Shown here: one piece after another, positions 24,047 through 62,228 of the stretch
Layout: each line of letters begins with the position of its first letter
Position numbering within the stretch: the stretch's first letter is position 1
Program-made: the position numbers and the translations under genes
Assembly (NCBI GenBank): GCA_963772935.1
Contig: CAVYZK010000001.1
Location: 166,001-230,000, forward strand
DNA: 64,000 nt
Source: an uncultured Alphaproteobacteria bacterium
Lineage (GTDB): Bacteria; Pseudomonadota; Alphaproteobacteria; Rhodobacterales; Rhodobacteraceae
Direction: 5' to 3'
The notes under the pieces: model-generated
What the model was told of the DNA's origin: nothing
The model's input: only the letters and a program-made list of their open reading frames with translations
Databases searched by the model: none

Positions 24047-24889
24047 CGCAGGGCCGCCGGCTGGAAAACCTCGACATCTGTGTAATCGACATTGTCCCCC
24101 GCCATCGCCCAGATGAACGTATAGCTGGCCGTCCCCGCGCCGGAGTGGATCGACCACGGCGGCGACAGGATCGCCTGTTCATTCGCCACGATCAGATGCC
24201 GGGTTTCTTGTGGTTCGCCCATCAGATGGATCACCCTTTGGGCGGGGTCGAGGTCGAAATACAGATATGCCTCCATCCGGCAGGAATGGGTATGCGCGGG
24301 CATGGTGTTCCAGATCGAACCGGGGGCAAGCGTCGTCATCCCCACCACAAGCTGGCAGGTCTGCACGCCCTCGGGATGGATGAATTGGAAGATCGAGCGT
24401 TCGTTGCAGGTGGCCGTACTGCCCAGATCAACGCGCTTGGCCTGATCAATGCGGATATGGCGGGTCGGATAGGTGTGATGCGCCGGGGCGCTGACGATAT
24501 AGAACTTCGCAGGGCTGCCGGGCTCGGCCGAGGCAAAGGACACCTCGCCCCCACCCATGCCGATGTAGATCATGTCGCGGGTGCCGAGGTCATAGCGATC
24601 CGCCCCCGCAAAGACGCTGCCCGCGCCGCCGATATTCACCACGATCATCTCGCGCCGATCCAGAAAGCCCGGCGTTCCGGTCAGCTTGACCGGGCCAAGC
24701 AGCAACGGCTCGTCCAACGGCAGGGCGCTGCCGACGATCATGCGGTCGTAATGCGTATAGGTCAGCGCGATCTCGCCGGGTTGAAACAGATCATCGACCA
24801 GAAACGCCCGCGCGCAGGGCGGTGGTGTCCATGCTGCGGGCCTGTTCGGGCGCAATGGCATGGCGAGAGGTTACACGGGTTTCGGTCAT
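24043..24889 (-). pseudogene. kduI: 5-dehydro-4-deoxy-D-glucuronate isomerase, interrupted by a 1-nt frameshift near 24800-24820
   Basis: The body 'FLVDDLFQPGEIALTYTHYDRMIVG...' to the stop is KduI. The KduI-like N-terminus 'MTETRVTSRHAIAPEQARSMDTTALRA' is in another frame. It starts at ATG 24889, which forms an ATGA overlap with the upstream ATPase stop. Total span is 847 nt (3n+1). Confidence 0.8.
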
Positions 24890-25629
24890 GTCAGCACCAC
24901 ATATTCTGTCAGTTGGCTAATGCTGGTGTCGGCCTTGGCGACATCGAACACCTTGGTTCCGTGGCTCATGATCACGAAGCGGTCGCAGACCTGATAGGCG
25001 TGATAGATGTTATGCGTGACCAGCACGCTGGAAACACCTTCCGCCTTCAGCTTCAGCACTTGGTTCAGCAGCGCCTCGGTTTCGCGCACCGACAGCGCCG
25101 AGGTCGGCTCGTCCAGCAGCAATATCCGACGCTTGAAGAACACCGCCCGCGCAATGGCCACCGCCTGTTTCTGTCCGCCTGACAGATCGCCGACCAGCTG
25201 ATCCGGGCTGTCGATGCCCGAGATATGGACGGCGGAATTCAGCACCTCCATCGCAATCTCGCGCATCTCGGCTTCCTTCAGAAACCCCAGGCGATTGGTC
25301 TTTTCGCGGCCCATAAAGATGTTGCGGGTGATCGACAGGCTGTCGACCAAGGCGGTGTTCTGGTAGATCGTCTCGATCCCGGCATTGGCGGAATCGGTTC
25401 GGCAGGTGAACAGCGTCTCTTTGCCATCGACGGTCAGGTGCCCTGTGGTCGGCTTGTGAATGCCCGACAGCAGATTGACCGTGGTGGATTTGCCCGCGCC
25501 ATTGTCGCCGAGCAGGCCGACCACTTCGCCCTCGCCGATATGAAAGCTGAGGTCGCTCAAGGCCGTCAGCGCGCCAAAGCGTTTGCCGATGCCGTGCAGT
25601 TCCAGAATGGGTGTCTTTTGCAGCATCAT
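24886..25629 (-). CDS. sugar ABC transporter ATP-binding protein (single NBD, FrcA-like)
   Basis: 'GDNGAGKSTT', 'LSGGQKQAVAIARA', 'LLLDEPTSALS'. Start at 'MMLQKTPILELHG' with an ATGA overlap to the permease stop. Confidence 0.85.
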   Translation of the reverse strand: MMLQKTPILELHGIGKRFGALTALSDLSFHIGEGEVVGLLGDNGAGKSTTVNLLSGIHKPTTGHLTVDGKETLFTCRTDSANAGIETIYQNTALVDSLSITRNIFMGREKTNRLGFLKEAEMREIAMEVLNSAVHISGIDSPDQLVGDLSGGQKQAVAIARAVFFKRRILLLDEPTSALSVRETEALLNQVLKLKAEGVSSVLVTHNIYHAYQVCDRFVIMSHGTKVFDVAKADTSISQLTEYVVLT

Positions 25630-26639
25630 GCCCCCCGCTTTTCGATCATCTGGTTCAGGATGGCGGCACCAACGATCAAGACGGCGATGAACATTTCCAG
25701 ATAAAAGCCCGGCGCCCGGATCAGCAGCAGGACGTTGGTGATGGTGTGGATCATCAGCACGCCCAGAAAGACGCCAAGCACCGATCCGCGCCCGCCATTC
25801 AGCGACAGCCCACCGATCACGCAGGCCGCGATGGCCTGCAACTCCAGCCCGGTGCCTTGCCCCGGCTGCACGCTGCCCACCCGCGCCGATGCGAGGATGC
25901 CCGCCACCGCCGCCATGCCGCCCGCGATGGCAAAGGCCGCGATCTTGACCCGCCCGGTGCGGATGCCGATGGCGGTGGCCGCAGCCCGGTTGCCGCCTGT
26001 TGCAAACACATGGTTGCCAAAGCGGTGGTGGTGCAGCAGCAGATAAAAGCCAACGCTCAGCGCCAGAAACCATAGGAAAGCGGCGTTCAGGCCAAAAATG
26101 CTTCCGGCAAAAAGCCCGGTGAACGCGGGTTCAGGGTCGAACCGCACCTGCACAGCACCATTGTAATACAGCACCGCGCCGCGCCAGAACAGCAGGCCGC
26201 CCAAGGTCACGATGAACGACGGCAGATTGAACCTCAGCGTGATCATGCCGTTCAGCACACCGATGCCAACGCCCAGCAGAATGGCAATCGGCGCGGCCAG
26301 AAAGCCACTCATCCCGGCCGAGACCTGCACCGCCATTACGATGGCCGTCATCGCATAGACAGACCCGACCGACAGATCGAACTCGCCCGCGATCATCAGG
26401 ATGCCGACGCCAAGGGCAAGGCAACCGATCACCGGCACCGCCCGCATCAGGATCGTCAGGTTCTGCGGCGACAGATAGCGAAAGTCATCCGGGTTCAGCA
26501 AAGCCCAAGCGATGCAGGCGATCTGTATCATGGCGAAAACCAGAAAAATGGATCCTGCCGGATGCGCAAGCAACCGTCGCAAGACATTCTTCCGGCGGGT
26601 CCGGCTGCGCGCCGGGCCGCTGTGGGCGATATCGGTCAT
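25626..26639 (-). CDS. sugar ABC transporter permease (RbsC/FrcC-like)
   Basis: 337-aa polytopic protein with the 'GEFDLSVGS' motif typical of this permease family. Confidence 0.85.
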   Translation of the reverse strand: MTDIAHSGPARSRTRRKNVLRRLLAHPAGSIFLVFAMIQIACIAWALLNPDDFRYLSPQNLTILMRAVPVIGCLALGVGILMIAGEFDLSVGSVYAMTAIVMAVQVSAGMSGFLAAPIAILLGVGIGVLNGMITLRFNLPSFIVTLGGLLFWRGAVLYYNGAVQVRFDPEPAFTGLFAGSIFGLNAAFLWFLALSVGFYLLLHHHRFGNHVFATGGNRAAATAIGIRTGRVKIAAFAIAGGMAAVAGILASARVGSVQPGQGTGLELQAIAACVIGGLSLNGGRGSVLGVFLGVLMIHTITNVLLLIRAPGFYLEMFIAVLIVGAAILNQMIEKRGA

Positions 26640-26706
26640 GGTGGGTTTCCCTTGGGTTCGAAAGGGTTTCCGGGCGGGCAGAACCGCCCGGAAACCAGAG
26701 GCGCGA

Positions 26707-27662
26707 TCAGCGATAGGTGCCGATCAGCGGCATGATGTCGCCAATGCCCGACTGATCGAGATAGGCACCCTGCCCGGTATCCACATCGGTCGGCGTCAGG
26801 CCGTATCGCGCCGACATGGCGATCTGGGCAATCGGGTAATAGCCTTGCAGATAGGGCTGCTGGTCCATCGTGGCGAACATCGCGCCAGACTTGACCGCAT
26901 CGGCAATTTCCACCGCAAGGTCAAAGCCCGCAAACGGCACATCCACCCCGGCATCGCGAATTGCACCCGCGCCCACGGTCGAGGTGACGGACCCGGTGCC
27001 GAACACCGCTTTGGTATTCGGGTTGGCGATCAGGAACTGCGTCATGATGTTTTGCGCCTCGGCCAGATCAAGGCCCGCGAACGCACGGTTTCCACCTTGA
27101 TGCCATGCTCTTTCATCGCCCGCTCGATGCCGCCGCCACGCGCCACGGCAAAGGTGGCTTCGGGAATTTCGCGCGGGTTGAACACCATATCGCCTTCCTT
27201 CAGGCCAAACTGTTTGACCATGCGCTGGCCAAGTTCATAGCCCGAGGCTTCTTCGTCCATGCCGACATAGGCCTGGCGGCAGTTGCCCTTGGCACCTTCC
27301 AGATCGTCATTGTTGAAACCGATCACCACGATGCCCTTATCAACAGCCGCACAGATGCTGGCGTCAAAAGCGTCCGAGCTGGAAATCGCCACCGCGATCC
27401 CGGCCACGCCCGCAGCCGTGGCGCTTTCGATCAGGTCGTTCTGGCGCACCGGATCGTTGTTGGCATATTGCACGTCCAGATCGACGTTGAACGCCGCCGC
27501 CGCATCCTGCGCGCCTTTTACCACCGGGTTGAAGAACTGCACGCTGGGGTCAAGATAGATGATCATCGTGGCCTTCACCGGCGCATCCTGCGCCAGCGCC
27601 GCCGTTCCTATCAGCAGCAAGCCCATCAGGCCCACCGCCATGCCAAAAGTCTGTTTTTTCAT
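26707..27662 (-). pseudogene. sugar ABC substrate-binding protein (RbsB/FrcB-like), split by a 1-nt frameshift near 27073-27086
   Basis: The N-part (signal 'MKKQTFGMAVGLMGLLLIGTAALA' ... 'GIKVETV') and the C-part ('FAGLDLAEAQNIMTQFLIANPN...') are contiguous in different frames. Span is 956 nt (3n+2). GGAGGAG upstream of ATG 27662. Confidence 0.8.
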
Positions 27663-27760
27663 TGGTGTCTCCTCCCTTTTTTCCCGATTGCGAGGCACAA
27701 TACCTCTCCGTCCGGCAGCCTCCTCCGCTGTCGGTAATGCCTTTTTGCTGTGGCCGGGTG

Positions 27761-29281: not shown

Positions 29282-29327
29282 GGTCGGTCTTGGCCTTCGC
29301 TGAAATGCAGGAGTCTCGATCTGTTGT

Positions 29328-30077
29328 ATGGTAGCGTATGGTAGTGGATTTCGCCTGTCAACATGCTATGAAGGGGCATGGACACAGAACTCGCTCAAAC
29401 AGCAAAGACCCGCCGCACAAGGGTCATCGACCGCAGCACAGGTGGAACAAGACCTGCGCGAGGCCATCATCCGGCTGGACATCAAGCCGGGCGCGCGCCT
29501 GTCGGAACAAGAGATCGCCGACACGCTCGGCGTGTCGCGCCAACCCGTGCGCGAGGCGCTGATCGCGCTTGGCAAGGCGCGTCTGGTGGCGGTGAAACCC
29601 AAGCGCGGCACGCTGGTGGTCAAAATCTCGGCCCGGCAGATGATGGAGGCGCGTTTCGTGCGCGAATCCATCGAAACCGCCGTGGTCCGCCGCGCCTGTG
29701 TCAGCTTTGATCTGTGGATGCGCGAGTCGATTTCGGGCATCCTCGACCGCCAGATCGCGGCACGCGATACGATGGATTACAACCGCTTCCGGCGTGAGGA
29801 TGAACAGTTCCACATGGCTTTGGCGCAAGGGGCGGGCTGTGCCATGGCTTGGGCAGTGATCGCCGATATCAAGGCGCATATCGACCGGGTCTGTAATCTG
29901 CAACTGCGCAAACCCGAATCGATGGCAGGGCTGATTCGCGAGCATCAGGCGATCATGGCCGCCATTGACGCCCGCGATCCCGATCAGGCCGAGGCGGCGA
30001 TGCAGTCGCATCTGAACGGCATCCTCTCGGACCTGCCCCGGCTGGAATCCGAAAACCCCGACCTGTTCGAGCCTTAG
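29328..30077 (+). CDS. GntR-family transcriptional regulator (FadR/FCD subfamily)
   Basis: 'LSEQEIADTLGVSRQPVREALIALGKARLV' winged HTH plus a helical FCD-type C-domain. The start is uncertain: ATG 29328 lies inside a tandem repeat, and GTG 29442 is also possible. Confidence 0.75.
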   Translation: MVAYGSGFRLSTCYEGAWTQNSLKQQRPAAQGSSTAAQVEQDLREAIIRLDIKPGARLSEQEIADTLGVSRQPVREALIALGKARLVAVKPKRGTLVVKISARQMMEARFVRESIETAVVRRACVSFDLWMRESISGILDRQIAARDTMDYNRFRREDEQFHMALAQGAGCAMAWAVIADIKAHIDRVCNLQLRKPESMAGLIREHQAIMAAIDARDPDQAEAAMQSHLNGILSDLPRLESENPDLFEP

Positions 30078-30122
30078 GCAAGTTTGCGCGCAGGCATCGA
30101 AAACACATCGAGGGGGATAGGC

Positions 30123-31054
30123 ATGAAGCGTTTCGTACCGGTTGGCGAATGTATGGTGGAACTGGCCCCCGATGGCGCCGCTGGCAGGTCGGCATCGCGG
30201 GCGACACGTTCAACACCGCCTGGTATGCCCGCGCCTTGCTGCCCGCCGCCTGGTCGGTGGCTTACCTCACCAGCCTTGGCAGCGACCCGTTCTCGCTGCG
30301 CGCGCTCGATCTGATGTGCGACAATGGCATCGGCACCGATCTGGTGCAGCGCCATCCCAGCCGCAGCATCGGGCTTTATGCCATCGCTTTGCAGCAGGGC
30401 GAGCGCAGCTTTTCCTATTGGCGCGACAGTTCCGCCGCGCGCACACTTGCCGACGATCCGGCTGTGCTTGCGGCGGGGTTCAGCAACGCCGATGTGATCC
30501 ACATCTCTGGCATCACGCTGGCCATCTTGCCGCCCGAGGGCCGCACGCATCTGATCACAGCCCTGACCACCGCGCGAAAGCGGGGGGCGATCACAGTCCT
30601 CGACCCGAATTTCCGCCCCCGGCTGTGGCCCGATGCTGCCACAGCGGCACAGGCGATCACCCAAGCCGCAGCGGCAGCAACTATTGTCCTGCCCAGCTAC
30701 GACGATGAGGTCGCGCTGTTCGGCGATGCCACACCAAAGGCAACCGCCCGACGCTACGCCGATGCCGGGGCGGCGACAGTGGTGGTCAAGAACGGCGACC
30801 GTGGCGTGATGCTGTCTGATCAGGGAAAGATCTGGCCCGTCACCGATCTGCCCCGCGTCGTGCCGCAAGACACAACCGGCGCAGGCGACAGCTTCAACGC
30901 CGGTTTCCTCTCCGCCCTGCTGACCGGAGCCGACCCCGAAACCGCTGCCCGCGCCGGGCATGCAATCGCGTCTAAAGTCGTGCGCCATCCAGGCGCGTTG
31001 ATCCCGATGCAGCACCTGCGTGAACCGGCGGTCGCGACGCAACCGGGACATTGA
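30123..31054 (+). pseudogene. kdgK: 2-dehydro-3-deoxygluconokinase (PfkB family), 1-nt frameshift near 30165-30190
   Basis: N-terminus 'MKRFVPVGECMVELAPDGAAG' (frame 3) continues as 'RWQVGIAGDTFNTAWYARAL...' (frame 2). This matches the KdgK pattern 'IGECMIEL...GFGGDTLNT'. C-terminal 'DTTGAGDSFNAGF' is present. Span is 932 nt (3n+2). Confidence 0.8.
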
Positions 31055-31154
31055 GATTGCCGCAGGCATGTCGGGAAGGAACCTCGCCTACGTGATGAAC
31101 GCCATACAAACCGTGATGGCCGATCAACGTTGACGGGATCGAGGGCCGAGCCCC

Positions 31155-32627: not shown

Positions 32628-32662
32628 TGCGGAGCCTTTCGACAGAGGTTTGGTTGGGCACT

Positions 32663-34647: not shown

Positions 34648-34775
34648 GAACAGGGTTCCTCCTCGTGCCTTTGGAAAAGGATCACCCACAGCGCAGTCGA
34701 ACGGGTAATAGCGGTTTCCTTGACAGGCTAGAACGAAAGCGACTAACTGTTCGAGGCAAGAATGGAGCCGACGTG

Positions 34776-35732: not shown

Positions 35733-35755
35733 ACGGTAATCCTATTGCTGGCGGG

Positions 35756-36579
35756 TTAAGGCACGGCTGTCGCCTGCATGGTCACCACCCCATCCCATCG
35801 CCGCACCCGCAAGGCAATTGCATCGCCTTGGTGCCGTGCCTCAATCTGAACGGCGTTGCCACAGATCAACGGTGCCAGTCCGCGATAGCGAAAGCTGTGC
35901 GGCAAACGGCCCAGAAGTGTTGTGGAAGGTTCAGCATCCAAAGCGCCTGCAAGGGACCATGCACAACCAGCCCCTCGTAGCCTTCCACCCCCGTCGCATA
36001 GGGCAGATCGTAGTGAATGCGGTGGCCGTTGAAGGTGACGGCAGAATAGCGAAACAGCAAAACCGGGTCGGGCGTGATCTGCCAAACGGCATCAGGCACC
36101 CAATCTTCGGCGGGGGCCGGATTTGCGCTTTGTCCCGGTTTGGGGTCGTCACGGTAGACCAGATCTTGCCGTTCGGTGATGCGGGTTTGGCCCTCTACGC
36201 GCCACAGATGGGTGATGCTGACAAAGCCAAGCGGCCCGGATGCGCCAGATTTGAAGCTGATCTCGCCCACAGTGCTGTCACGGGTGACGATATCGCCGGG
36301 GTTGAGTATGCCGGAAAACTCCATCTCTCCCCCCGCCCACATCCGGCGTGGCAAGGGCAAGGCTGGCACGAACAGTCCGGTGCGCGGGTGGCCGTCACGG
36401 CCAAGATCGGCGGGGCCCGCCACATCGGGCACCAAGGCCCAATGAAAGCCGGGCGGCACCGCGCCGGGACCAAGCATACCCGCCATGACCGCGCGAAAAT
36501 GCGTCAACGACCGGTCGCTGATGAGTTCCGTTCTCGACGATTGCCGTCCAACCCAATCGCTGTAATCGTTTGGATTCAT
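35756..36579 (-). pseudogene. MaoC-like (hot-dog) acyl-CoA hydratase, itaconyl-CoA hydratase-like, 1-nt frameshift near 35935-35955
   Basis: The 237-aa ORF runs cleanly to '...GLVVHGPLQAL'. It then continues in another frame as 'LDAEPSTTLLGRLPHSFRYRGLAPL...MQATAVP'. Span is 824 nt (3n+2). ATGA overlap with the PrpD-family stop. Confidence 0.7.
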
Positions 36580-40089: not shown

Positions 40090-40092
40090 CCG

Positions 40093-41967
40093 CTACCGCC
40101 CCTCAACGCTGCGCGCCGAAACTCGGGTCAGGCTAGAGGCGATCCAGTCGGGCGCCGTTTTGCTGGCTGGATCATCCAACACCACCCGGCGCAGGCCCTG
40201 ATCCGACGTTGTGCCAAGCTGCGCGCCATAGGTCAGCCACCAGACCAGCGGCACGCCAATCAGCCAGAACAGCAATTGCCAGACCCAAAGGGATGGCACA
40301 CCCAAGGCGGCATCGCCGGTGGTGAAAATCGGCTGGCTGAAAAAGGTGTTCCCCAGGATCGCCCCCGGCCCCAAGGCGAAGAACGCCCAGATCAAGGTCA
40401 GTGACCATTTCGCGTTGCGCGCGGGCTTGGTCCCGAAATCGACGCGCCATGTTGCAGCAAATTCATCATGCAGGCGGTCGCGGTGCCTGCGTTCGGCCCC
40501 GCTGCGGGTGAAGATTGCAACCAGCAGCACCGCACCGACGTTGAAGGCAAGTCCCCAGGCGGCAGAGTGGATGGTCAACGGCCAGCGACCCCATGGCAAA
40601 TCCACAAACAGCCCCTCAAACAGGATCAGGCCCAGTGGTTCGGTGAACAGCACCATCAGCCCGCCAAAGATCAGGCCGACCAGAACCGCACTGCGGCTGA
40701 TCCAGCGCAGGAAGGTGAGGCCCAGAAACGCAGGCAGCATCTGCACCGCCAAGGGCAGGGCAAGGCTGCCGAAGACCGCTGACGCGAGGGGCGCAAAGGC
40801 GGCAAGGGCCGCCACAAGCGCAAAGGCGATGGCCAGAGTGACACGAATGGTCAGCCGGGCCTTGGCAGGCGACAGATCGGGCAGAACATATGGCAAGATC
40901 ACGTCGCGGCAGACCAATATCGCGCCTGAGGTGGTAAAGAAAGCGACCGCCATCTGCGCTGTGACGATCACAAGCAGCAGAAGGCCAACCCCGGCAAATG
41001 GCTCTATCACGCCGAGTTCGGCGGCAAGCGCCGCTGGCCCCTGCCCCATCCGCAACGCGAGCATCGGCCCCGCGATCAGCAGCACCCCCGTCAGTAACGC
41101 CGCAATCAGCCAGACCGGCGCAAACCCCGCGCTCCGCCCGGCCCGCGCCGTCATGCCAAGGAACAAGAATCCCGGCGACAGCACGATCCCGATCAGCGAC
41201 AGCGCGGCCGACGCAATCCCGACCCCGGTGAAGATGCCACCCTGTGGCGCGCCTTTACCGATGCCCGCCGAAAACTGGATCACGCCGGGGATCTGGTCGG
41301 CAAGGATGCCCGTAGCGACGGGCATTGCAGCAGTGGGAAATCCCGGCCCACTCAACATCAACGCGCCGAACCCGGCCAAACCCGGAAGCAGCACGACCAG
41401 CAGCACCGATTGCAGCGCCAACACCAGCACGGTGGCACGCCAACCGCCGATCACGGCAGGCAGGAACAAAAAGAACGCCGTCACCCAGATTGCCGTGGCG
41501 CGGGGCACAGCACCATTCGTTGCCTCCGCCAGCAGCCCGCCCAGTTGTGCCAGCAGGTTAGCGGCAAAGGGCAAGCCGAACAGCAGTGCCAGCGTCAGCA
41601 TCACGATGCGCAGCGACACGCTTTGATAATAGCGTCCCAGCGCCTCGCCGGGGCTGGACAGCCCGGCAATCCGCGCCGCCAACCAAAGGCGTTTTTGCAG
41701 CAGCAGCGCGGTCAGGGCGGCAAGGATCAGGCCAAGGGCGATGTGACTGGCTTGCAAACCGAAGCGGTTGATCAGGGCAAGATGGTCAGACAGACCCATA
41801 CCCGCCACCATCACCCCGGCCGAAGCAAAGCTGACTGCCCAGCCGGGCAGATCAGCCCCCGCGTCACCGAAACTCGCAGGCGCAGGCGCGGCGCGGGCCA
41901 CGAGGGCCGCAAGATACACCCCGACAGCCACCAGAAAGGCGAGCGTCATGATCAGGAACGGCGTCAC
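40093..41967 (-). CDS. large polytopic membrane transporter, sodium:solute symporter (SSF)-like
   Basis: About 624 aa with at least 12 hydrophobic segments and a Gly/Ala/Leu-rich composition. GTG start forms a GTGA overlap with the upstream small-protein stop. The family call is tentative. The track start at 42306 is rejected because it overlaps. Confidence 0.5.
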   Translation of the reverse strand: MTPFLIMTLAFLVAVGVYLAALVARAAPAPASFGDAGADLPGWAVSFASAGVMVAGMGLSDHLALINRFGLQASHIALGLILAALTALLLQKRLWLAARIAGLSSPGEALGRYYQSVSLRIVMLTLALLFGLPFAANLLAQLGGLLAEATNGAVPRATAIWVTAFFLFLPAVIGGWRATVLVLALQSVLLVVLLPGLAGFGALMLSGPGFPTAAMPVATGILADQIPGVIQFSAGIGKGAPQGGIFTGVGIASAALSLIGIVLSPGFLFLGMTARAGRSAGFAPVWLIAALLTGVLLIAGPMLALRMGQGPAALAAELGVIEPFAGVGLLLLVIVTAQMAVAFFTTSGAILVCRDVILPYVLPDLSPAKARLTIRVTLAIAFALVAALAAFAPLASAVFGSLALPLAVQMLPAFLGLTFLRWISRSAVLVGLIFGGLMVLFTEPLGLILFEGLFVDLPWGRWPLTIHSAAWGLAFNVGAVLLVAIFTRSGAERRHRDRLHDEFAATWRVDFGTKPARNAKWSLTLIWAFFALGPGAILGNTFFSQPIFTTGDAALGVPSLWVWQLLFWLIGVPLVWWLTYGAQLGTTSDQGLRRVVLDDPASKTAPDWIASSLTRVSARSVEGR

Positions 41968-42431
41968 CGGCGCTCCCCCCGGTTCAGGCGCGAGGCACGG
42001 CGGGGGTTGTTGTCGCGGATGATGTCGAACCGTGCAAACGCATCGCGGGTGCCAAAGCGCGTCAGCATGTAGAACACGGCGGCTAGCAGCAGGACGATCA
42101 TCCCCCCTGCCACCGGCAGAAAGAACCGCGCGGCAAAGCCGTCGCCCAGCAATACCGCCAGAACCAGTGCCACCAGCCCGGTCGCATAGACCACCATCGC
42201 CAGCCCCACCTCGCGCGGGGTGAAACCCGTGCCCAGTGTGGCATTGACGATCACATGCGCCGCAAACCCCGCTAGCAAGGCGGCGAACCCGCCCGCCACC
42301 CACCACGCGCCACCGGGGCCAAAACCGTAGTGCAGCAGCCCCAGTGCCACGAACCCCGCAGGCAGCCAGACCGCCAGCACCAGCGCGTGACGGTCCAGCC
42401 GCATGGTGGCCTCATCCTCTGACGACATCAT
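41964..42431 (-). CDS. small integral membrane protein (about 4 TM), unknown family
   Basis: 155 aa with four hydrophobic segments and a basic tail '...NNPRRASRLNRGERR'. Translationally coupled to the transporter gene. Confidence 0.5.
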   Translation of the reverse strand: MMSSEDEATMRLDRHALVLAVWLPAGFVALGLLHYGFGPGGAWWVAGGFAALLAGFAAHVIVNATLGTGFTPREVGLAMVVYATGLVALVLAVLLGDGFAARFFLPVAGGMIVLLLAAVFYMLTRFGTRDAFARFDIIRDNNPRRASRLNRGERR

Positions 42432-42444
42432 TCAAGCCCCCGTT

Positions 42445-44650
42445 TCAGTCGTCATCCTTGTCGGCCTTCGGGGCCGGAACCGGCGCGAAGTTGCGGAAGG
42501 ACATGCCGCCCGCCGAGCCAAGGTTCTTCAGCGGCAAGCCGATTTCCTCCATCAAGCCCGTCCACGAAGGCCACTTGGGTGCGGTACTTCATCGCTGAAT
42601 TCACCACCTGATCGGACACATTGCCACCGCCGCCGCCACCGGACCCGCCAGAGCCGGTTTCAGATGGGCTGTTCAGCCCCGGCAAACCATCGACATGCAG
42701 GATCTTGATGCTGTCGATGTTTTCCATCGGCTTGACGGTTTCCTTGATGATCGCAGGCAGGGTCTTGACCAGATGTTCGTAGATTGCCGACCGGCGGCTT
42801 TCGTCGTTCCGCATGTTCTCGGCATCATTCAGCTTGCGCTGACCTTCCGCGTCAGATTCGTAGCGCACGTCTGCCGCATGGGCCTCGGCAATCTCGGCCA
42901 GGGCGCGCTGTTCCACAGCCTGCTTATCGGCCTCGGCGGCGCGGACCGTGCGCAGGGCATCGCGTTCGGCCGCGGATTCAGCCGCGATAATCTCCACCCG
43001 CGCGTTTCGGTTGGCACCTTCCTCCGCGCGCACCGTCGTGACCTGTTCCTCGGCCACCGCCAGCACGCGGCGGGCCTCGGCCTCGGATGTGCGCACCACG
43101 GCCTCTTCGATGGCCTTGTTGACCACGGCAATCAGGCGCTGCTTGTCGGCCAGTTCAATCTCCATGTCCTGCTCGATCACAAAGCGGTCGATGTATTTCT
43201 GCGCGGCGATCCGCAGTTCTTCCACCTCGCGCGAGGCCACGATCTGCGCATCCTCGACCCGCCGGAAGCTGAGCGTTTCGGCCAGTTTGATCTTCTGCTG
43301 CTTGGCGATTTCCTGTTGCGCGACTTCCTCGTCGGCCTTCACCCGGTCAAGGTCAACCGCCTGCCGCTTGGCGATGACGGCGCGTTCCTGTGCCGCCGCC
43401 GCCTGTTCGTTTGACACGCGGATGTCGCGGCCCTTGGCCACCTCCAGCAGTTCGATCTCCATCGAGGTGGCGATGCGCGCGGCTTCCACCTCGCGGTCAC
43501 GGTCAAGGCGGGCCTGTTCAATCTCGCCCGTCGATTTCACGTCATAAACCTCAAGCTCCAGCCGCGATTTGATCTCGGCCTCCTTGATCTGGCGGTCGCC
43601 TTCGATGCGGTCGGATTCGACCTGCTGGCGGGTCTGGATGCGCTGTGTTTCAAGCGCCGAGCGTGAGGCAATCTCGGCCAGTTCAGTATCTTTCTGCCGC
43701 TCAATCTCCAGACTGCGGGTGTCGTTTGCCGCACGGATGCGTTCGGCCTCCACCGCCTGATCGGTGGTGATGCGCAGGCGTTCGGATTCCTCTTGCGCGC
43801 GCACCTTGGACTGGTTGATCGAGATGGCGGATTGCGCGCGTTCGGCCTCGATCTCGGCCAGTTGGGCTGCCTTGCGGATTTCGATGGCCCGGCTTTGGTC
43901 GATGCGGGCGTATTCCAGATCGCGGTCGATTTCCAGGGCACGGCTGGCGGCCTCGTAATCCTTTTGCTTGATGTCGATGCGGGCCTCATTCTCAATCCGG
44001 TTGCGGATCTTGCGGCGGTCCTCGATCTGTTCGGTAAGCTGGGTCAACCCCTCGGCGTCAAAGGCGTTGGACGGGTTGAACACCGAAATATCCGATTGGT
44101 TCAGCGCGGTCAGCGAGGCGTTTTCCAGCTCCAGCCCGTTGGTGCCAAGCGTGGCCCCAGCCTGTTCGGCCACCCGACGGATATATCCTGCACGGTCCTG
44201 ATGAATTTCCTCCATCGTCATGCTGGCCGCAACGGATGCCATGGCGTCGATGAACCGGCTTTGGATGATTTCCTTCAGCGCCATGGGTTCCTGGGTGCGT
44301 GCGCCAAGGGTGCGGGCGGCGGTGGATACACCCTCTTTGGTCGCAATCACCCGCACGAAGAACTCGGCGGAAATATCCACCCGCATCTTGTTGCGGGTGA
44401 TCAGCGATTGTTCCCCCACCCGGCGGATTTCCACCGGGATGGCGTTCATGTTCACCACCGTGATGTCATGGATGATCGGGATCACCAGCGCCCCCCCGCC
44501 CATCACCACACGCTCGCCACCAGACCCGGTGCGCACAAAGCTTTGGTCCTTGGACGAATGGCGATACAGCCAGTGCAGCAGATAGACCCCGACCGCGATC
44601 AGGATCGTCAGAAGTATCAGAATGGCAATTGCATCAGCGCCGGTCATCAT
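42445..44650 (-). pseudogene. flotillin / SPFH-domain protein (YqiK-like), 1-nt frameshift about 35 codons before the stop
   Basis: N-terminal TM segment plus 'FVRTGSGGERVVMGGGALVIPIIH' (compare YqiK 'FVRTGLGGQKVVMSGGAIVMPIFH'), then a long Glu/Ala/Arg coiled coil. After '...YRTQVAFVDGL' the YqiK-like tail 'MEEIGLPLKNLGSAGGMSF...KADKDDD' is in a different frame, with its stop at 42445-42447. Confidence 0.8.
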
Positions 44651-44683
44651 CTTTTCCTTTCGTCAGGCTCACGCCCGGGCAAA

Positions 44684-45376
44684 TCAATACCGTTCCTGGC
44701 CAGCGACGGCCAAAACGATCAGCGACGGGGTGATCAGGTTGATCAGGTCGAACAGGGTATAGAGGGCAATCACACCGGGGGCTTGGCCCGCGCCGATCAC
44801 CACATCGACAAAGTGCAGGATCGGGTAGATCGCCCAGCCGATGGTGAAGATCAGGCGTATCCAGAAATAGCCCAGACGCACGGCCCGGCTGCCCTTGCGG
44901 ATGGCATCGGGCATCGCCCCGAAATACATCTCGCCCAGAATATACAGCCAGAACCCGATGGACAGCAGCGCGCCAAGCGTGGGGTTGAAGAACGCGGCAT
45001 CGCCCAGATAGCGTGAAAACACCATCAACAGCGCCGCCGCCGTCATCCGCCAGAACACGCCCACCGGGATTTTCCCCATGCTGCGGGCAAAGAAGTAGAC
45101 CGCCGCCACCTGCAAGGGCTGCACGGTGAACCAGCCGGAAAACCGGATGCCGCCACTGGCCTTGCCCGCCATCAGCCACAGCGATGTGGCCCCGGCATAG
45201 TGCAGCGCGCTCGCCAGCGCCGCCACTCCCACCATCGCCACCGGCAACCGCCATTTGTCACCCGACCATGTCAGGCCCAGAAAGCACAGGATCGCGGTAG
45301 AGAACGTCGCCAGCAAGGCCGCCGCAAAGGCGCTGCTGACCACATCTTGCGAGGTATACAAAGCTCCGAACATCAT
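44684..45376 (-). CDS. proteorhodopsin/xanthorhodopsin-fold 7-TM protein lacking the retinal-binding lysine (opsin-like, K->L)
   Basis: Collinear with green proteorhodopsin as recalled: 'ALHYAGATSLW', 'RFSGWFTVQPL', 'LLMVFSRYLGDA', 'GWAIYPILHF', 'YTLFDLINLITPSL'. Leu214 (CTG 44735-44737) replaces the Schiff-base Lys. AGGAAGG upstream of ATG 45376. Confidence 0.7.
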   Translation of the reverse strand: MMFGALYTSQDVVSSAFAAALLATFSTAILCFLGLTWSGDKWRLPVAMVGVAALASALHYAGATSLWLMAGKASGGIRFSGWFTVQPLQVAAVYFFARSMGKIPVGVFWRMTAAALLMVFSRYLGDAAFFNPTLGALLSIGFWLYILGEMYFGAMPDAIRKGSRAVRLGYFWIRLIFTIGWAIYPILHFVDVVIGAGQAPGVIALYTLFDLINLITPSLIVLAVAGQERY

Positions 45377-45385
45377 GTGCCCTTC

Positions 45386-46769
45386 CTAGACTTGCGCTCT
45401 GATATGCGGCGATCGGCCATACAGCGCGACCATCGGCAAGATCAGCAGACCGAAGATGAATTGTTGCCATTCGTATTTCAGGCCGATCCCGATCAGGAAT
45501 GATGACAGCACCTGAAGCACCAGCACCCCGATCACGGTGAACCCGTAGCCACCGTTGCCGCCAATCAGCGAGGTGCCGCCAATGACCACTGCCGCCAGCG
45601 TGGTGAACAGATAGGGATCGCCCACCCCGATGAACCCGCCGCCCGACCACCCCAGCAGCAGCGATCCGGTCAGGGCGGCAAACACGCCCGACAGGGTGTA
45701 GGCGAGGGTCCAGTATTTGAACTCGCGACACGCCGATCAGCTTGGCTGACCGACGGTTGCCGCCAAGCGCATAGATGTAGCGACCGTAGGCCGAATAGCG
45801 CAGCGCCACGATCACGATAATCGCCAGCACGATCCAGATCAGGATGGTGGGCGGAAAGCCAAGGCCAAAGGTCTGCCCGTTCATCGCCGCCAGATTCTGC
45901 AACCACGGCGGCACCGTGCCGAACACGTTGCCGCCAAAGGCCGACCCGATGGAGGTCAGGATCTGCGTCAGCCCCGCCACCGCAAACCCCATGCCCAGCG
46001 TCATGATCAGCGCCTGCCCTTGCAGTTTGTAACTGAGCACCCCGTTGATGAACCCGATCACCCCGCCGATGATCAGCACAAACCCCGCCGCCACGAAGGA
46101 TGGCACCCCAAGGCTGATCAGGAACAAAAGCCCGATGTTGGATGCCCCGATCACGAAGGGGATCGACAGGTCCAGCCCCCCCATCAGCGCCACCAGCGTC
46201 TGCCCGATACAGGCGATGCCAAGGAAGGCCGCGAACAGCAGGATCGCCTTGATGTTGGGGCCGGACAGGAACCCCTCAATCGTGAAGGATGAAATCACGA
46301 TCAGGGCCACCAGCACGATCAACCCGATAAACGCGGAACGGCCCGTGGCGAACTGGCCCGAGACTTTGAAGGCGAACAGCAAGATCGCCTCCAGCACCAG
46401 AAAGGCGATCAGGTTGGTGATCGACCGGAACTCTGGCACAGTGGCCGTGACGATCAGATAGACCAGCAAAAGCAGGACCATGGCGATGATCAGCACCCGG
46501 TTGGACCGCCAGACCCCGGCGGTTTTCGGTGCCGGATCGCGCACCACCGCGCGCGTCTCGAACATCACCGCGATGTAGTTCAGCAGCCACAGCAGCACGG
46601 CGACCGAGATCACCGTCGAAAGGATCACGGTCTGCGCCTTGACCCCCTGCCCAAAGCCAAGGCCAAAGCCGATGGCGGCGACGATCAGGGCCAGCGCAAG
46701 GTTCATCCAGATCAGAAAACCCGAGCGGGGAATGGGGATCAGGTGCTGGCGTGGTGGCAGATCGGTCAT
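45386..46769 (-). pseudogene. sugar-type ABC permease with about 130-aa extra N-terminal TM region, 1-nt frameshift near 45720-45733
   Basis: Core motif 'LVALMGGLDLSIPFVIG'. The reading frame is good to '...GGNRRSAKLIGVS'. It continues in another frame as 'REFKYWTLAYTLSGVFAALTGSLLLGW...'. Span is 1384 nt (3n+1). ATGA overlap with the preceding permease. Confidence 0.8.
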
Positions 46770-48113
46770 GGCGCGCCTCCGTCAAACAGGGTCAGAGGGC
46801 CTTGGCCCGCGACCACGGCGAACAGCGCCACGATCAGGACCGCCACGAAGATATACAGAAACAGCCCCATCCGTTTCGCCCGCGCCTCGGCGTTGATCAG
46901 GCGCGCGGCAAGGGCCAGCACGACGGCGGCAAAGGCGGCAAGGAAGGCGACCTTCTGGATCGGGGAAAGGGTCAGGCCAAGGCCGGATGTCCCAGCAGGG
47001 GACACCAGCAGATAACGGGTCAGCAGATCGCCGGGCGCTGCCGCCATGATCGGTTCGGCGGGCAGGTAGATCGCAGATGTTGCCACATGCAGCATGATCC
47101 CGACCACCCCGCAGGCCAGCACCACAAACGCACCCCAAGGCGAGATGAAGGAAATGTGCCGCCCGATCACCGGCACCAGCAGCGTCAGCAGCAGCGACGC
47201 CATCAGGATCAACCCGTAGGCCATCTGCGTCACAAACGCCTGCACCGCGCCAAAGTTGAACGTCGCCAGCACATAGCCGATCAGGTACAGGTTCAGCGCC
47301 CCCAGCAGCGCCCCAGTCACCCCGCCGCGCCCGCCTGCCAGACTGACCCCGCCCAGCACCAAGCGCCGTGGTTGCGGTCAGCGTCATGTTGGTGCCTTGG
47401 GTGGGGTCGCCCGAGGCGATCAGCGCCGTGTAGCAGATCGCACCCAAGCCCACGAAAATCCCGGCAATCACATGCGCGCCGATGCGCACGATGTTGATGC
47501 GCACGCCGCTGGTCCAGGCGGCGCGCTCGTCATAGCCCATCATCCGCAGGTTGGCGTAAAACGGCGTCAGCGTGAACAACAGCCACCCCGCCGTGGCAAG
47601 CAGCACGATCAGCAGCACGGGCGAGAATATGGTGGCCCCAAGGCCCCAGCTTGCCATGAACTCTGGTGCCACACCACCGGGGCGGGGCAGGATCACCAGG
47701 TTGATGCCGGTCAGTGCCAGAAACCCCGACAGCGCCACGATGATCGGCTGCACCCGCACCCAGATCACGATGGCGGCGAACAAAAGCTGGTACAGAACCC
47801 CGATGCCGATTGCCACGAAGAACACGCCGAATGGGCCCGTCACCACCTCCAGCCCGTTCAGTTTGACGATGCTGACGTTGATGAAGGCCAGCAGCGGCCC
47901 CACCGCCAGATCAACCGTGCCGCGACCCGCCACCGCCAGCGCCATCAGCGCATAGGTGGCCAGCGTCAGCGGGGCCGCCACGATGATCGCCGACCCGAAC
48001 CCCGACAGCGACACAAGGCTGGGCCCCCGCACCGCCGCGATGCCCAGAAGCACCGCGATCAGCAGGATCGGCACCAGCAGATAGGTGCTTGTCGAGGAGG
48101 ATCGTTCCGACAT
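46766..48113 (-). pseudogene. sugar-type ABC permease with about 115-aa extra C-terminal TM region, 1-nt frameshift near 47360-47375
   Basis: The frame is good to '...GDPTQGTNMTLTA'. It then continues in another frame as 'VLGGVSLAGGRGGVTGALLGA...', the conserved permease motif. Span is 1348 nt (3n+1). Confidence 0.8.
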
Positions 48114-48144
48114 GCGGCGGGCTTTTCATCCGAAGGAAAGGGGG

Positions 48145-48171
48145 TTCGGGCGCGTCTTGCACGCGCCCGAA
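48145..48171 (-). terminator. perfect 11-bp GC-rich stem-loop between the hydrolase and permease genes (attenuator or mRNA-stabilising hairpin)
   Basis: TTCGGGCGCGT-CTTGC-ACGCGCCCGAA, read directly. It lies 7 nt after the hydrolase stop and has no clean U-tract. Confidence 0.45.
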
Positions 48172-48177
48172 AAGGGA

Positions 48178-49116
48178 TCAGAGATCAATCACCCGACGCC
48201 CCGCAGGGCGCGGTGACGAGGATGGGGACGACGCAGGGCCAGACAGCGCACGCCCTCCACCCCGGCGTTCGGGATCGTTCTGCACGATCTTTTTCAGCAC
48301 GGGGCTGATCACATCCTTGAACTTCACCGGGTCTTCCGATGTCGGGAAATGCCCGCCCGAGAAGATGATGGTTTCAGACCCCTTCACCTTTTCTGCCGTC
48401 CGCAAGGTCATTTCCGGCGTGCAGGCAAAGTCATATTCCCCGGTCAGGAAATAGATCGGCGTGCGGCCAGAGATCTTGTGAACGGTGTCGCGGAAATCGC
48501 TGTCCACGGAGTAGAAATAGAGGTCGCCCTTGAAGATGCCGGGCCCGCCCTGGGCATAGTACCACCATGTTTCCCAACGATAATCATCCGGGCTTTCCGG
48601 CGACATCAGGCCGAAGGTGCTGGTCGCCACAGCCTCGCCGCCATGGATATGCGGGTGATGCAGCGGGTAAATCCACCAGCCGGGGGAATAGTCGCAAGCC
48701 TCAAGCGCGATGAAGGCCGAAAACTCGTTTTCATACTTCAGCGCCAGTGCCAGACAGATGTTGCCGCCCATGGATTGCCCCATGATCACCGGCTTTTTCA
48801 GATCAAGCGCGCGGCAGAAGGCGACGATGAATTCGGTGTAGAATTTCGTCGTCAGCTTGTACTCATCCTCCATCAGATGGAAATCTGCGGGCGGAATCGA
48901 CTTGCCATGCCACGGCATGTCAAAGGCGATCATGCGGAAATTGGCGGACATGTCCGGGTCGCACATCTGGTGGCGATACTGCCGCCCGTCGGTGCCTGCG
49001 GTGTGCAGGCAGACCATCGGGATGCCCTCGCCATGTTCTTCGTAATAGGTCCGGTAGGTCTTGCCCTCGCAGGTGACATAGACGTAGCGGCCAATGATGG
49101 GGTCGTGCTGGTTCAT
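48178..49116 (-). CDS. alpha/beta-fold hydrolase
   Basis: 'VCLHTAGTDGRQY' and nucleophile elbow 'GQSMGG', 312 aa. The last 30 or so residues are low-complexity (Pro/Ser/Gly/Arg). Confidence 0.75.
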   Translation of the reverse strand: MNQHDPIIGRYVYVTCEGKTYRTYYEEHGEGIPMVCLHTAGTDGRQYRHQMCDPDMSANFRMIAFDMPWHGKSIPPADFHLMEDEYKLTTKFYTEFIVAFCRALDLKKPVIMGQSMGGNICLALALKYENEFSAFIALEACDYSPGWWIYPLHHPHIHGGEAVATSTFGLMSPESPDDYRWETWWYYAQGGPGIFKGDLYFYSVDSDFRDTVHKISGRTPIYFLTGEYDFACTPEMTLRTAEKVKGSETIIFSGGHFPTSEDPVKFKDVISPVLKKIVQNDPERRGGGRALSGPASSPSSSPRPAGRRVIDL

Positions 49117-49126
49117 CGCGGGTTCC

Positions 49127-49531
49127 TCACACTTCGCGCATCAGGGACAGCATCCGCGTCAGCGCGCGCATGTTCTGCCAGAACGGCAGGGTGTTGCCGT
49201 CGATCACCAACTGCTTGTGCAGCGGGTGCGCCATCGCCCAGATGTCGTTGAACATCGGCGGCGGGATTTTCATGCTGAACTTGGCCCAGGCGCTGGATGG
49301 CGCGCGCAGGGCAAAGTCGAACCCCATGTCATTGGGGGTCAGTCCTTCGGAAATGCGGGTGATCTTGCCCCCCCGCACCTCGACCAGAAATTCTGTCTCA
49401 TCCACGCCCAGAACAAAACGGTTGGTAAAGAATTTGGCCGTGACCGGCAAAATCCTGTCTTCATTGACGCAGCGCGCCCAGCGTTCGACCCATTCCAGAT
49501 CGAAACCTTTTCTGCTGCCGTATTTACTCAT
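49127..49531 (-). CDS. small soluble protein, SCP2/sterol-carrier-like (tentative)
   Basis: 134 aa with AGGAGG upstream of ATG 49531. The pattern '...FLVEVRGGKITRI...FALRAPSSAWAKF...LVIDGNTLPFWQNMRAL' resembles the SCP2 fold. Confidence 0.4.
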   Translation of the reverse strand: MSKYGSRKGFDLEWVERWARCVNEDRILPVTAKFFTNRFVLGVDETEFLVEVRGGKITRISEGLTPNDMGFDFALRAPSSAWAKFSMKIPPPMFNDIWAMAHPLHKQLVIDGNTLPFWQNMRALTRMLSLMREV

Positions 49532-49562
49532 GCGGTCCTCCTTGGGGGTTCGGCAGATTGTG

Positions 49563-50090
49563 TCATGGGGTTGGCAAAGGTTTGCGGGCCGGGCCGTAAA
49601 CCGCTGTGAAAGAAGCCTGATCAATCGCCACCGGCAGTACGGCAGCGGCGAAAGCCGCGAGGTCAGCCCCCGGTGCTATATCCACGCGGGCCGTCTTCAA
49701 CGCATAAAGCGTGAAGACATAGCGGTGCTGGCGGTCGGGCGGCCAAGGCCCGCCCCAACCGCGCCCGAAGCCCGGAATGCCGAAGGTCACAAAATCGGAA
49801 TTCAGCTCTGCCGCAGGGGACGGCATCGCAAGGCTGTTGCTGGCACCCTCAGCCAGTTCGCGGATATGACCCGGAATGTCATGAACCAGCCAATGCGCGA
49901 AACTGCGGGGAAAGTTGAAGGCGGCCGGCAGGTCGGGGTCGGTGACGGCCAGCGCAAAACTTTGCGTCCCCTCGGGTACCCCCGACCAGCGCAGGGCGGG
50001 CGAAGTGGGGCTTTCTTCGACAAAGCGGTCAGGGACAGTGGACCCTTGCGGAATGTCGGGGGCGGTCAGCAGGAAACCGGATTGGTTCAT
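49563..50090 (-). CDS. YbhB/YbcL-family PEBP (Raf-kinase-inhibitor-like) protein
   Basis: 'SPALRWSGVPEGTQSFALAVTDPD', 'HWLVHDIP' and 'GPWPPDRQHRYVFTLYAL' are PEBP hallmarks. It has its own ATG 50090 with GAGGA upstream. The upstream ATPase frame runs into it without a stop. Confidence 0.7.
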   Translation of the reverse strand: MNQSGFLLTAPDIPQGSTVPDRFVEESPTSPALRWSGVPEGTQSFALAVTDPDLPAAFNFPRSFAHWLVHDIPGHIRELAEGASNSLAMPSPAAELNSDFVTFGIPGFGRGWGGPWPPDRQHRYVFTLYALKTARVDIAPGADLAAFAAAVLPVAIDQASFTAVYGPARKPLPTP

Positions 50091-51709
50091 AGCATCCTCG
50101 GCTGGTTTGGGGCGGGTCAGGGGCACGACGCGCGCAGCGGGGCGGCCATCGTCACGCGGGGGGGTGCGGGGTGTGTCAGGGGCGTCAGCGGTCAGCGGCT
50201 CGGCCGCCCGGCGGCCAAACATCGCGTTCAGGATGACATGACCATCAAACGGCGGGTCAAAATCGGCAGAAATCGAGCCATTGCGAAACACATGCACCCG
50301 TGAACACAGGTTCATGAATTCCTCGATTTCAGACGACAGGAACACCACCGCATTCCCCCGCGCGGCGAAGTCGCGCAGGTTGCGGTAGAGGTCCAGCTTC
50401 GCCCCGATATCAATGCCGCGCGCCGGATCATTCAGCACCAGCACTGTCGGCTTTTCGGCAAAGGCCCGTGCGATCAGCACCTTTTGCTGGTTGCCGCCCG
50501 ACAGCGAGGTGATCAGGTTTTCCGGCGACCCCATCTTCACCGCCAGCTTGCCGGTCTCCCAATCAAAGATCGGTCCCAGCTTGGTACGGTTGATCAGGTT
50601 CAGCCAGCCCCCCGCGCGGTAGGTGCGATAGATCGGCAGCGCCAGATTTTCAAAGATGCCAAGGTTGGCAAAGATACCCTCTTTCTTGCGGTCGCCCGAG
50701 ACGTAGCGATGCCGTTTTCGCGCGCGGACCGCAGGTCGGTGACGGGTTCGGCCACCCCGTCGCGCACCACCGCGATTTGCCCTGACACCAGCGGCGCGAC
50801 CCCGGCCATTGCCCGCACGAATTCGGCCTGCCCCTGCCCATCCAGCCCGGTGATCCCCACCACTTCGCCGGGGAACAGCGTAAAGTCAAAAGCCGCACCA
50901 TCGGCCCAAACCTTGGCCGCCACCATCCGCAACACCGGCAGATCAGAGGACCGGCTGGCCGAAACCTGTGACCCTTGCGCCTTCTCGCGCTCCGGCCCTG
51001 CGATCAGCGCCAGGATGCGCGCTTCAGTAATTTCGTCCTTCTCCAGCGTCCCGACCGTGCGGCCATCGCGCAGCACCGTGGCGCGGTCGGCGATGCGCAC
51101 CAGTTCGGCGATGCGGTGTGTGACGATCATGATGGAACAGCCGCGCGCCTTCATCTGACGCATCTTGCGGAACAGCCGTTCGGTGGAATCGAAATCCAGT
51201 GCCGCCGAAGATTCGTCCAGGATCAGCACCTTGGGGTCGGTCAACAGCGCGCGGCCAATGGTGATCCATTGCTTGATCGACAGGGGCAACTCGCCCGCAG
51301 GTACATCCAGATCGAGATCGAAGCCCAGCAGTTCCGCCATCAGAGCAGATGCCCGCGCGTAGCGTTCTTCGCGGCTGACCGACGACCCCAGCAGGCCGTC
51401 CGCCCCAAGATAAAGGTTGTCCAGCACCGAACATTCATCGGCCACCAGCACTTCCTGAAATACGTTGGAAATCCCCAACTCCCGCGCCTCATGCGGCGAG
51501 GTGGCAGATTTGCCCAGGATAGCAACCTGCCCTTCGTCGGGGATCAGCACACCGGAAATCACCTTGGCGAGGGTACTTTTGCCAGACCCGTTGCCGCCGA
51601 TGATCGCATGAACCTCGCCCTCATAGGCGCGCAGCGATACCCCGCCCAAAGCCACGGTCGGGCCGAAGGTCTTGCGGACCGCAGATATTTCGACCGTGAC
51701 GACAGACAT
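50091..51709 (-). pseudogene. two-NBD sugar ABC transporter ATP-binding protein, 1-nt frameshift near 50698-50712 and no stop of its own
   Basis: NBD1 has 'GGNGSGKST' and 'LILDESSAALD'. After '...ARENGIA' the expected 'YVSGDRKKEGIFANLG...' is in another frame. NBD2 has 'LSGGNQQKVLIARA' and 'LVLNDPARGID'. Start at 'MSVVTVEIS' (51709). Confidence 0.8.
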
Positions 51710-62225: not shown

Positions 62226-62228
62226 CAC

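Follow-up and report, generated by a model that had tools for sequence, protein, structure and literature searches.

Frame breaks between 24.8 and 50.7 kb

The window analysed here, that is, the whole stretch of 64,000 nt, derives from a metagenome-assembled genome of nine contigs and 4.26 Mb. Between 24.8 and 50.7 kb it carries genes for KduI, the sugar-binding protein of a kdu-linked ABC importer, KdgK, a MaoC-like hydratase, a YqiK-like flotillin, two ABC permeases and an ABC ATPase with two nucleotide-binding domains. A sequence-only reading had reported that each of these eight genes switches frame once. All eight frameshifts were found, no more than 15 nt from where that reading had placed them. 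In three-frame translations, family sequence carries on in another frame at approximately 24805, 27075, 30178 and 35926, and likewise at approximately 42554, 45726, 47364 and 50707, and split or truncated Pfam matches accompanied most of the switches. The sites were also compared with contigs from public metagenomes. Three Illumina metagenomes from two studies (X2, X3 and X4) supplied contigs that match the window at 98% identity or more, referred to here as near-identical. The loose ends of the X4 contigs show Nextera adapter sequence.

The kduI gene (minus strand) contains one surplus base at 24805, which splits off approximately the first 28 codons (MTETRV...DTTALRA), and only the downstream frame gives a Pfam match to KduI. 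The base is absent from an X1 contig (754 nt, approximately 93% identical). In the gene for the sugar-binding protein (minus strand), the window has two surplus bases relative to X1, one at 27073 and one at 27078, with a net change of frame; positions 9-157 of the Peripla_BP_4 profile are matched in one frame and positions 164-251 in the other. On the plus strand, kdgK is one base short at 30178, 3' of the N-terminal GECMVELAP motif. X1 carries one base more here, and the PfkB match begins at profile position 27 of 302, in the downstream frame. The gene for the MaoC-like hydratase (minus strand), whose frames were assigned by translation, is one base short at 35926, and a further base is present at precisely this place in an X3 contig (259 nt, 1 mismatch).

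The remaining four genes also lie on the minus strand. The flotillin gene has one surplus base at 42554, approximately 37 codons 5' of the true stop, which is absent from a near-identical X4 contig; the match to the Flot domain extends to profile position 118 of 124 and ends at residue 699, at the break. Both permeases belong to the BPD_transp_2 family and contain one surplus base each. That at 45726 is absent from an X4 contig (203 nt, 1 mismatch), profile coverage ends at position 174 of 269, and 17-18 paralogues align over the site with a net +1. That at 47364, within a GG.SL.GG.G motif, is absent from an X2 contig (151 nt, 1 mismatch), with profile coverage ending at 213 of 269; an ab initio scan of coding potential also flagged this break, at 47360. 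In the ATPase gene one base is missing at 50707, within the second nucleotide-binding domain, and the second ABC_tran match is split. Contigs of X2, X3 and X7 (approximately 92% identical) each carry one base more, this being the only indel against them within 50450-50950, and seven paralogues align with a net -1. At the site, the wobble-position phase of the substitutions changes from 0 to 2. As substitutions fall at every third base and their phase shifts, both halves of the gene are under purifying selection. The ATPase frame continues without a stop into a PEBP domain.

Four indels were found beyond these eight sites. A gene for a GntR/FadR-type regulator (plus strand) has a surplus base at 29388, 9 nt 3' of the probable start codon, that is absent from an X2 contig of at least 98% identity as well as from X1 and X5. 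A 1-nt difference at the GntR stop (30077) was seen only against relatives of 93% identity. Between a rhodopsin-like ORF and the flotillin gene, the window may be one base short at 44677, as indicated by a single X2 contig of depth 26.8 that may come from another organism. Finally, a surplus base at 53811, in an intergenic low-GC spacer, is absent from a near-identical X4 contig and extends the error-rich stretch to approximately 53.8 kb. The eight indels reported previously thus stood, while neither their number nor their confinement to 24.8-50.7 kb did.

The breaks run in mixed directions, both +1 and -1. Each affected gene has one break, that of the sugar-binding protein consisting of two nearby bases at one site; in-frame stop codons and larger deletions are absent from these genes, and coding potential remains high in the correct frame on either side. 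We agree with the sequence-only reading that slippery heptamers and long homopolymers are missing: inspection of the sequence contexts revealed no slippery heptamer at any of the eight sites, and none of the twelve indel places lies in a homopolymer run of more than three bases. Phase-variable contingency loci, which change by slipped-strand mispairing in simple-sequence repeats or long homopolymers, therefore do not match the sites.

Near-identical DNA and the flanks

The contigs used for comparison originate from samples other than the source and could represent other strains; in two run searches, the best public run contained just 0.12-0.21 of the sampled words of the window. Between 24 and 64 kb, single-base indels separate the near-identical contigs from the window at just seven places. 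These include four of the eight breaks (35926, 42554, 45726 and 47364), and at all four, which are the ones covered, the difference restores the frame. At the other four (24805, 27073/27078, 30178 and 50707) the frame is restored in contigs of 92-93% identity. The coverage of X1 and X5 is almost nil over 44.4-51.1 kb. Intact alleles are therefore present at all eight sites in near-identical or closely related DNA, and the indels are specific to the window. Single-base differences from the near-identical contigs are somewhat more frequent in the block than in the left flank. No long DNA match to the first 7 kb of the block (24-31 kb) was found in 40 relatives, two of them from the same genus; one of these two same-genus genomes shows synteny, at 74-81%, with the flank at 10.9-17.9 kb.

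The flanks had been described as free of frameshifts, and our results bear this out. Near full-length Pfam domain matches were obtained for 29 of 30 flank genes (220-22674 and 51819-63946). The left flank (220-22674) contains 20 genes with such matches, and in the right flank (53840-63946) they were found for eight of nine; the ORF at 63299-63946 has no Pfam match. Where near-identical Illumina contigs cover 4000-23999 and 54-64 kb, neither flank shows an indel against them. As the 30 tested flank genes look intact, the clustering within the window is real. At the genome mean, approximately six events would be expected in the roughly 35 kb of flanks, and none was found (P ~0.003).

Frameshifts across the genome

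We scanned the whole assembly with two independent methods. A paralogue-based tblastn search gave 168 frameshift events and an ab initio scan of coding potential gave 367 candidates. The two have 78 in common, and all nine contigs are affected. A capture-recapture estimate suggests approximately 600-800 frameshifts in the 4.26 Mb. A first paralogue scan had yielded 254 clusters, some of which were mirror artefacts of frameshifted queries (an example being 28545 in the window); tightening the criteria and removing queries that touched a strong event reduced these to 168. The ab initio scan misses breaks near gene starts or with a nearby stop and recovered only three of nine known coding breaks in the window; its counts are lower bounds. 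In a random sample of events found only ab initio, five of six looked real by eye. The +1 type accounts for 142 of the 168 paralogue events and 325 of the 367 ab initio candidates (about 87-89%), a one-sided bias that looks like a technical signature.

The local clustering reported for the block survives only in part. Frameshifts occur everywhere in the genome, at an estimated 1 per 5-7 kb, yet their density is significantly patchy (index of dispersion in 25-kb bins 1.57, p ~4e-6), and the block, with 1 per approximately 3 kb, is at about twice the mean. The block is one of the denser patches, lying between clean stretches, and such clustering is not unique to it. In a comparison at a second locus (contig C9, 739.5-759.5 kb), no near-identical contig lay over the predicted sites.

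Breaks of the same kind were found in essential genes. The NCBIfam profile matches of single-copy genes are split, with the profile coordinates running on from one part to the next, for RNase E (76-323 and 326-415), ParC (126-442 and 445-737), SecD (1-164 and 167-397) and LepA (2-325 and 326-541). RpoH is also split (3-151 and 149-283) and has a 50%-identical paralogue. Broken essential single-copy genes are incompatible with a living cell, as would be expected of an assembly artefact. Since RNase E, ParC and SecD are single-copy and carry breaks that look identical, these cannot be decay that is tolerated, and the block needs no special explanation. In addition, one contig end (C3:110001-124438) duplicates C1:10075-24528 at 96.1% identity; the alignment opens 105 gaps over 14.5 kb, and the copy resembles barely corrected read sequence. 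Contig C5 was considered as a haplotig of C4 and ruled out, the identity being only 70-75%. Completeness was estimated at 92%, which is low for an assembly of nine contigs.

Origin of the frameshifts

Taking these results together, we are highly confident that the frameshifts are no biological feature but errors of single bases in the consensus of an assembly that was poorly polished. The assembly is probably based on long reads. Indel-driven frameshifts are a known trait of (meta)genomes assembled from long reads (proovframe preprint, bioRxiv 10.1101/2021.08.23.457338; Sereika et al. 2022, PMC9262707). The likeness to such assemblies extends to the single-base indels that split otherwise intact genes, essential ones included, throughout the genome, to the few contigs (9) with reduced marker completeness (92%), and to near-identical short-read DNA without the indels. 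Nevertheless, the cited nanopore work emphasizes indels derived from homopolymers (bioRxiv 10.1101/2021.08.23.457338; PMC9262707), and the errors here depart from that textbook pattern in lying outside homopolymers and in being mostly insertions (about 88%). A patchiness on the 30-kb scale is also left unexplained by those papers.

The errors would consist mostly of spurious inserted bases along with some missing ones, at a density that is uneven along the contigs, and 24.8-53.8 kb would be a worse patch between two clean stretches. The patchiness may have arisen because read depth was low, or because polishing failed, over a segment of roughly read length, and the segment may be strain-variable or accessory, as its left part is absent from the same-genus genomes. 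The clean flanks count against an artefact insofar as they require the extra assumption of uneven depth or polishing. The real genes of the organism are most likely intact, including the kdu/KDG uronate route, an itaconate-like CoA cluster, the flotillin and the ABC importer. By our estimate, false splits or truncations may affect approximately one gene in six of this genome, and apparent findings of the same kind are to be expected in other windows. Claims of pseudogenes, of lost pathways such as the uronate/KDG route, of fusions or of odd N-termini should be distrusted until polishing or a check against reads. When the source reads are unavailable, such cases can be settled with near-identical contigs of low depth taken from unrelated public metagenomes.

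A poor assembly was one of three explanations offered by the sequence-only reading, and the intact alleles and genome-wide errors favour it over the other two, decay and hypermutation. Genomes undergoing reductive evolution, such as those of Mycobacterium leprae and recently host-restricted symbionts, contain many genes interrupted by frameshifts, together with nonsense mutations, deletions, IS expansion and loss of coding signal, while their essential genes stay intact. A genuine recent pseudogenisation, in which selection on an accessory block of approximately 29 kb was lifted in the strain and the block is decaying by small indels, would fit the clustering of the breaks, the involvement of whole pathways (kduI, the transporter and kdgK together), the low-GC spacer at the block boundary, and the left part (24-31 kb) without counterpart in two same-genus genomes beside a syntenic flank. 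We consider it very unlikely. Unlike in M. leprae-type genomes, there is one break per gene, with neither nonsense codons nor larger deletions, and the coding signal is undiminished on both sides. The lesions are not common to near-identical strains, as all four covered sites are intact in DNA of at least 98% identity, and the wobble-position substitutions on both sides of 50707 speak against relaxed selection. Identical-looking breaks elsewhere strike essential genes, the single-copy RNase E, ParC and SecD among them.

Real indel polymorphism, at the population level or driven by a mutator, through localised hypermutation, for instance by error-prone repair after DNA uptake or in a mismatch-repair-deficient lineage, could account for the over-dispersed indel density of the genome and for the slight excess of single-base differences in the block. 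In mismatch-repair-deficient lineages, however, indels are expected mainly in homopolymer runs, and none of the 12 sites lies in a run longer than three. The genome-wide excess of +1 over -1 has no easy biological explanation, and single-copy essential genes are affected, which leaves this explanation exceedingly improbable. We likewise give hardly any credence to a composite in which an accessory segment of approximately 29 kb, newly acquired or newly freed from selection, gained about a dozen real single-base indels outside homopolymers by some localised error-prone process, with the genome-wide frameshifts forming a separate technical layer.

Programmed recoding, by ribosomal frameshifting or transcriptional slippage, resembles our observations in that two overlapping frames encode one protein, as in IS3-family orfAB with its ALIL pseudoknot (Rfam RF01497), prfB and dnaX. 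Programmed sites combine a slippery motif with a stimulatory structure and are conserved in relatives. The sites in the block have neither, slippery heptamers and homopolymer tracts being absent from every one; +1 and -1 changes both occur, and the same proteins are encoded in a single frame in close relatives. Recoding is thereby effectively refuted, its probability being negligible. One recoding signal alone is present in the window, an IS3-type ALIL pseudoknot (61624-61740) that falls outside the block.

Frame breaks in the middle of the window

Three-frame translations revealed that same-strand family sequence resumes in another frame at all eight places where a sequence-only reading of the window had claimed a switch: 24805 (kduI), 27073/27078 (sugar-binding protein), 30178 (kdgK), 35926 (MaoC hydratase), 42554 (flotillin), 45726 and 47364 (two ABC permeases) and 50707 (two-NBD ATPase). 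KduI reads 'MTETRV...MDTTALRA' in one frame and FLVDDLFQPGEIALTYTHYDRMIVG in another, KdgK 'VGECMVELAP' followed by GIAGDTFNTAWY, and the ATPase 'ARENGIA' followed by YVSGDRKKEGIF. In Pfam, Peripla_BP_4 is matched in two pieces in the sugar-binding protein (9-157 and 164-251 of the profile), the kdgK product enters the PfkB profile only at position 27 of 302, the BPD_transp_2 matches of the two permeases end at 174/269 and 213/269, and the ATPase has its second ABC_tran domain in two parts. Frame arithmetic gave four sites of the +1 type and four of the -1 type. As had been stated, the sites are free of slippery motifs, and base runs do not exceed three. The permeases (45386-48125, minus strand) are both unusually long (~450 aa each), one with ~175 hydrophobic residues ahead of the domain and the other with ~120 after it.

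The breaks are indeed restricted to the central part of the window. Thirty flank genes were called with hexamer statistics and searched against Pfam, and 29 displayed near full-length domain matches; the gene at 63299-63946 had no Pfam match.

Comparison with metagenome contigs

Among the public runs searched, none contained a high share of the window (best 0.12-0.21). DNA for comparison came from other samples, four Illumina metagenomes (X2 and X3, freshwater sediment; X4 and X18, sediment) whose contigs, though of low depth, match the window with 98% identity or more. Loose ends in X4 show Nextera adapter sequence. Over 24-44 kb and 44-64 kb, single-base indels were found at exactly seven places. 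The window has an extra base at 29388 near the GntR start (against X2), 42554 in flotillin (X4), 45726 and 47364 in the permeases (X4 and X2, respectively) and 53811 in the spacer (X4), and a base is missing at 35926 in the MaoC gene (X3) and at intergenic position 44677 (X2). Four of the seven coincide with claimed frame switches, each in the frame-restoring direction. The base at 29388 lies 9 nt past the probable ATG of a GntR-type regulator and moves its N-terminus into another frame. No indel was present against at least 98%-identical contigs of the same runs over 4000-23999, nor against such contigs in 54-64 kb. The error-rich stretch is about 24.8-53.8 kb, with about a dozen indels. The eight sites placed within 24.8-50.7 kb stand, but the list was incomplete, with further indels at 29388, 44677 and 53811 and a stretch reaching ~53.8 kb.

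Contigs about 93% identical from lake water (X1, X5) cover three more of the eight sites. Relative to these contigs, the window has one base too many in kduI (24805), two too many in the sugar-binding protein gene (27073 and 27078) and one too few in kdgK (30178). The base at 29388 is absent from them as well. Both also lack one window base on the GntR stop codon (30077), outside the near-identical contigs. That difference could be one more error in the window or just normal divergence. As for 50707, all three contigs of ~92% identity (X2, X3, X7) have one more base after the site, the sole indel in 500 nt. Substitutions around it fall mostly on every third base, 13 of 18 in phase 0 below 50707 and 13 of 16 in phase 2 above. 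With this wobble-like pattern on both sides, purifying selection is acting on both halves of the ATPase as a single uninterrupted reading frame, and all that is missing from the window is one base. The DNA-level evidence points to an indel peculiar to this assembly at all eight sites.

The downstream frame of the ATPase (49566-50885, minus strand) meets no stop codon and continues across a low-coding, proline-rich linker to a PEBP/YbhB-like domain (PF01161, residues 290-430). The two may be truly fused, or one more indel may lie near 50.2 kb.

Frameshifts across the genome

The genome comprises 4.26 Mb in nine contigs (62% G+C), with an estimated completeness of 92% and contamination of 2.2%. 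High contiguity together with reduced completeness hints that this is a long-read metagenome assembly in which marker genes are broken. At its end (110001-124438), contig C3 carries a 96.1%-identical copy of positions 10075-24528 of C1, the contig on which the window occupies 166001-230000. The copy (14.5 kb, 425 mismatches, 105 gap openings) has 15 predicted frameshifts within 14 kb and looks like uncollapsed, barely corrected read sequence.

Frameshifts were counted genome-wide in two independent ways, a genome-wide scan having been named with the original observation as a check that could refute local clustering. In a paralogue scan, 3559 confident ORFs were compared with the whole genome by tblastn, and collinear hit pairs in different frames were kept after removal of frameshifted queries. 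This gave 168 events spread over all nine contigs, including both permeases and the ATPase with correct sign. A coding-potential scan for genes whose coding signal departs from the frame 45 nt or more ahead of the stop and goes on in another open frame gave 367 candidates; the window accounts for three, each a true break, and its flanks for none. Of random events found only by the latter scan, five of six were evident real breaks by eye (Ro/TROVE protein, RpoH, glycosyltransferase, terminase, XdhC). With 78 events common to both scans, capture-recapture provides an estimate of ~600-800 frameshifts, about one per 5-7 kb. Of the 168 and 367 events, 142 and 325, respectively, are of the +1 type. 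As false positives should be roughly symmetric, this one-sided bias argues for high precision and a technical cause.

Five housekeeping genes are split with contiguous NCBIfam profile coordinates: RNase E (76-323/326-415), topoisomerase IV subunit A, ParC (126-442/445-737), SecD (1-164/167-397), RpoH (3-151/149-283) and LepA (2-325/326-541). No second copy of RNase E, ParC, SecD or LepA is present in the assembly. These breaks cannot all be real lesions in a living cell.

Three explanations had been offered for the clustering: locally poor assembly, decay of an accessory block or hypermutation. Density is truly uneven: the 25.9 kb of the block contain nine coding breaks (about 1 per 3 kb, roughly twice the estimated genome mean), and ~35 kb of clean flanks contain none against roughly 6 expected (for a uniform rate, P about 0.003). 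However, with frameshifts on every contig, the cluster is not unique, and the unevenness is genome-wide: 25-kb bins have an index of dispersion of 1.57 (p about 4e-6), gaps between events are in excess both below 1 kb (78 against 46 expected) and above 30 kb (30 against 18), and about two dozen bins match the block's density in either scan. Two same-genus genomes, one of them syntenic with the left flank, lack the left part (24-31 kb) of the block, so the block may be DNA that varies between strains and was less deeply covered in the source sample. Patches of ~30 kb also correspond in length to roughly a few long reads, a possible cause of the patchiness. Neither decay nor hypermutation is supported. 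Poor assembly is, by contigs of 92-98+% identity without the indels at all eight sites, by errors throughout the genome and by split essential genes. The cluster is no biological feature but a known artefact class, indel-driven frameshifts in long-read (meta)genome assemblies (bioRxiv 10.1101/2021.08.23.457338; PMC9262707), atypical here in being mostly insertions outside homopolymers. It calls for caution with every other finding from this genome.

Other features of the window and genome

Directly upstream of the flotillin gene, where an NfeD/YqiJ-like partner is expected, a 233-aa ORF (44684-45385, minus strand) matches Bac_rhodopsin (PF01036, E 1.7e-8, profile 8-216/224). At 40093-42431 (minus strand), where AT skew is unusually strong (0.34 at 40-42 kb), two ORFs (624 and 155 aa) have good coding scores and no Pfam match. 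The ALIL pseudoknot (Rfam RF01497), a -1 frameshift stimulator of IS3-family transposases, is matched over its full length at 61624-61740 (minus strand; 84.6 bits). The surrounding ~850-nt intergenic gap (61382-62229) contains only short ORFs, so an IS3-type element has probably left a remnant here. On contig C9, frameshifted genes at 47559 and 50420 resemble, by eye only, magnesium chelatase BchH and a protochlorophyllide/chlorophyllide reductase subunit, and the organism may be a bacteriochlorophyll-containing phototroph.
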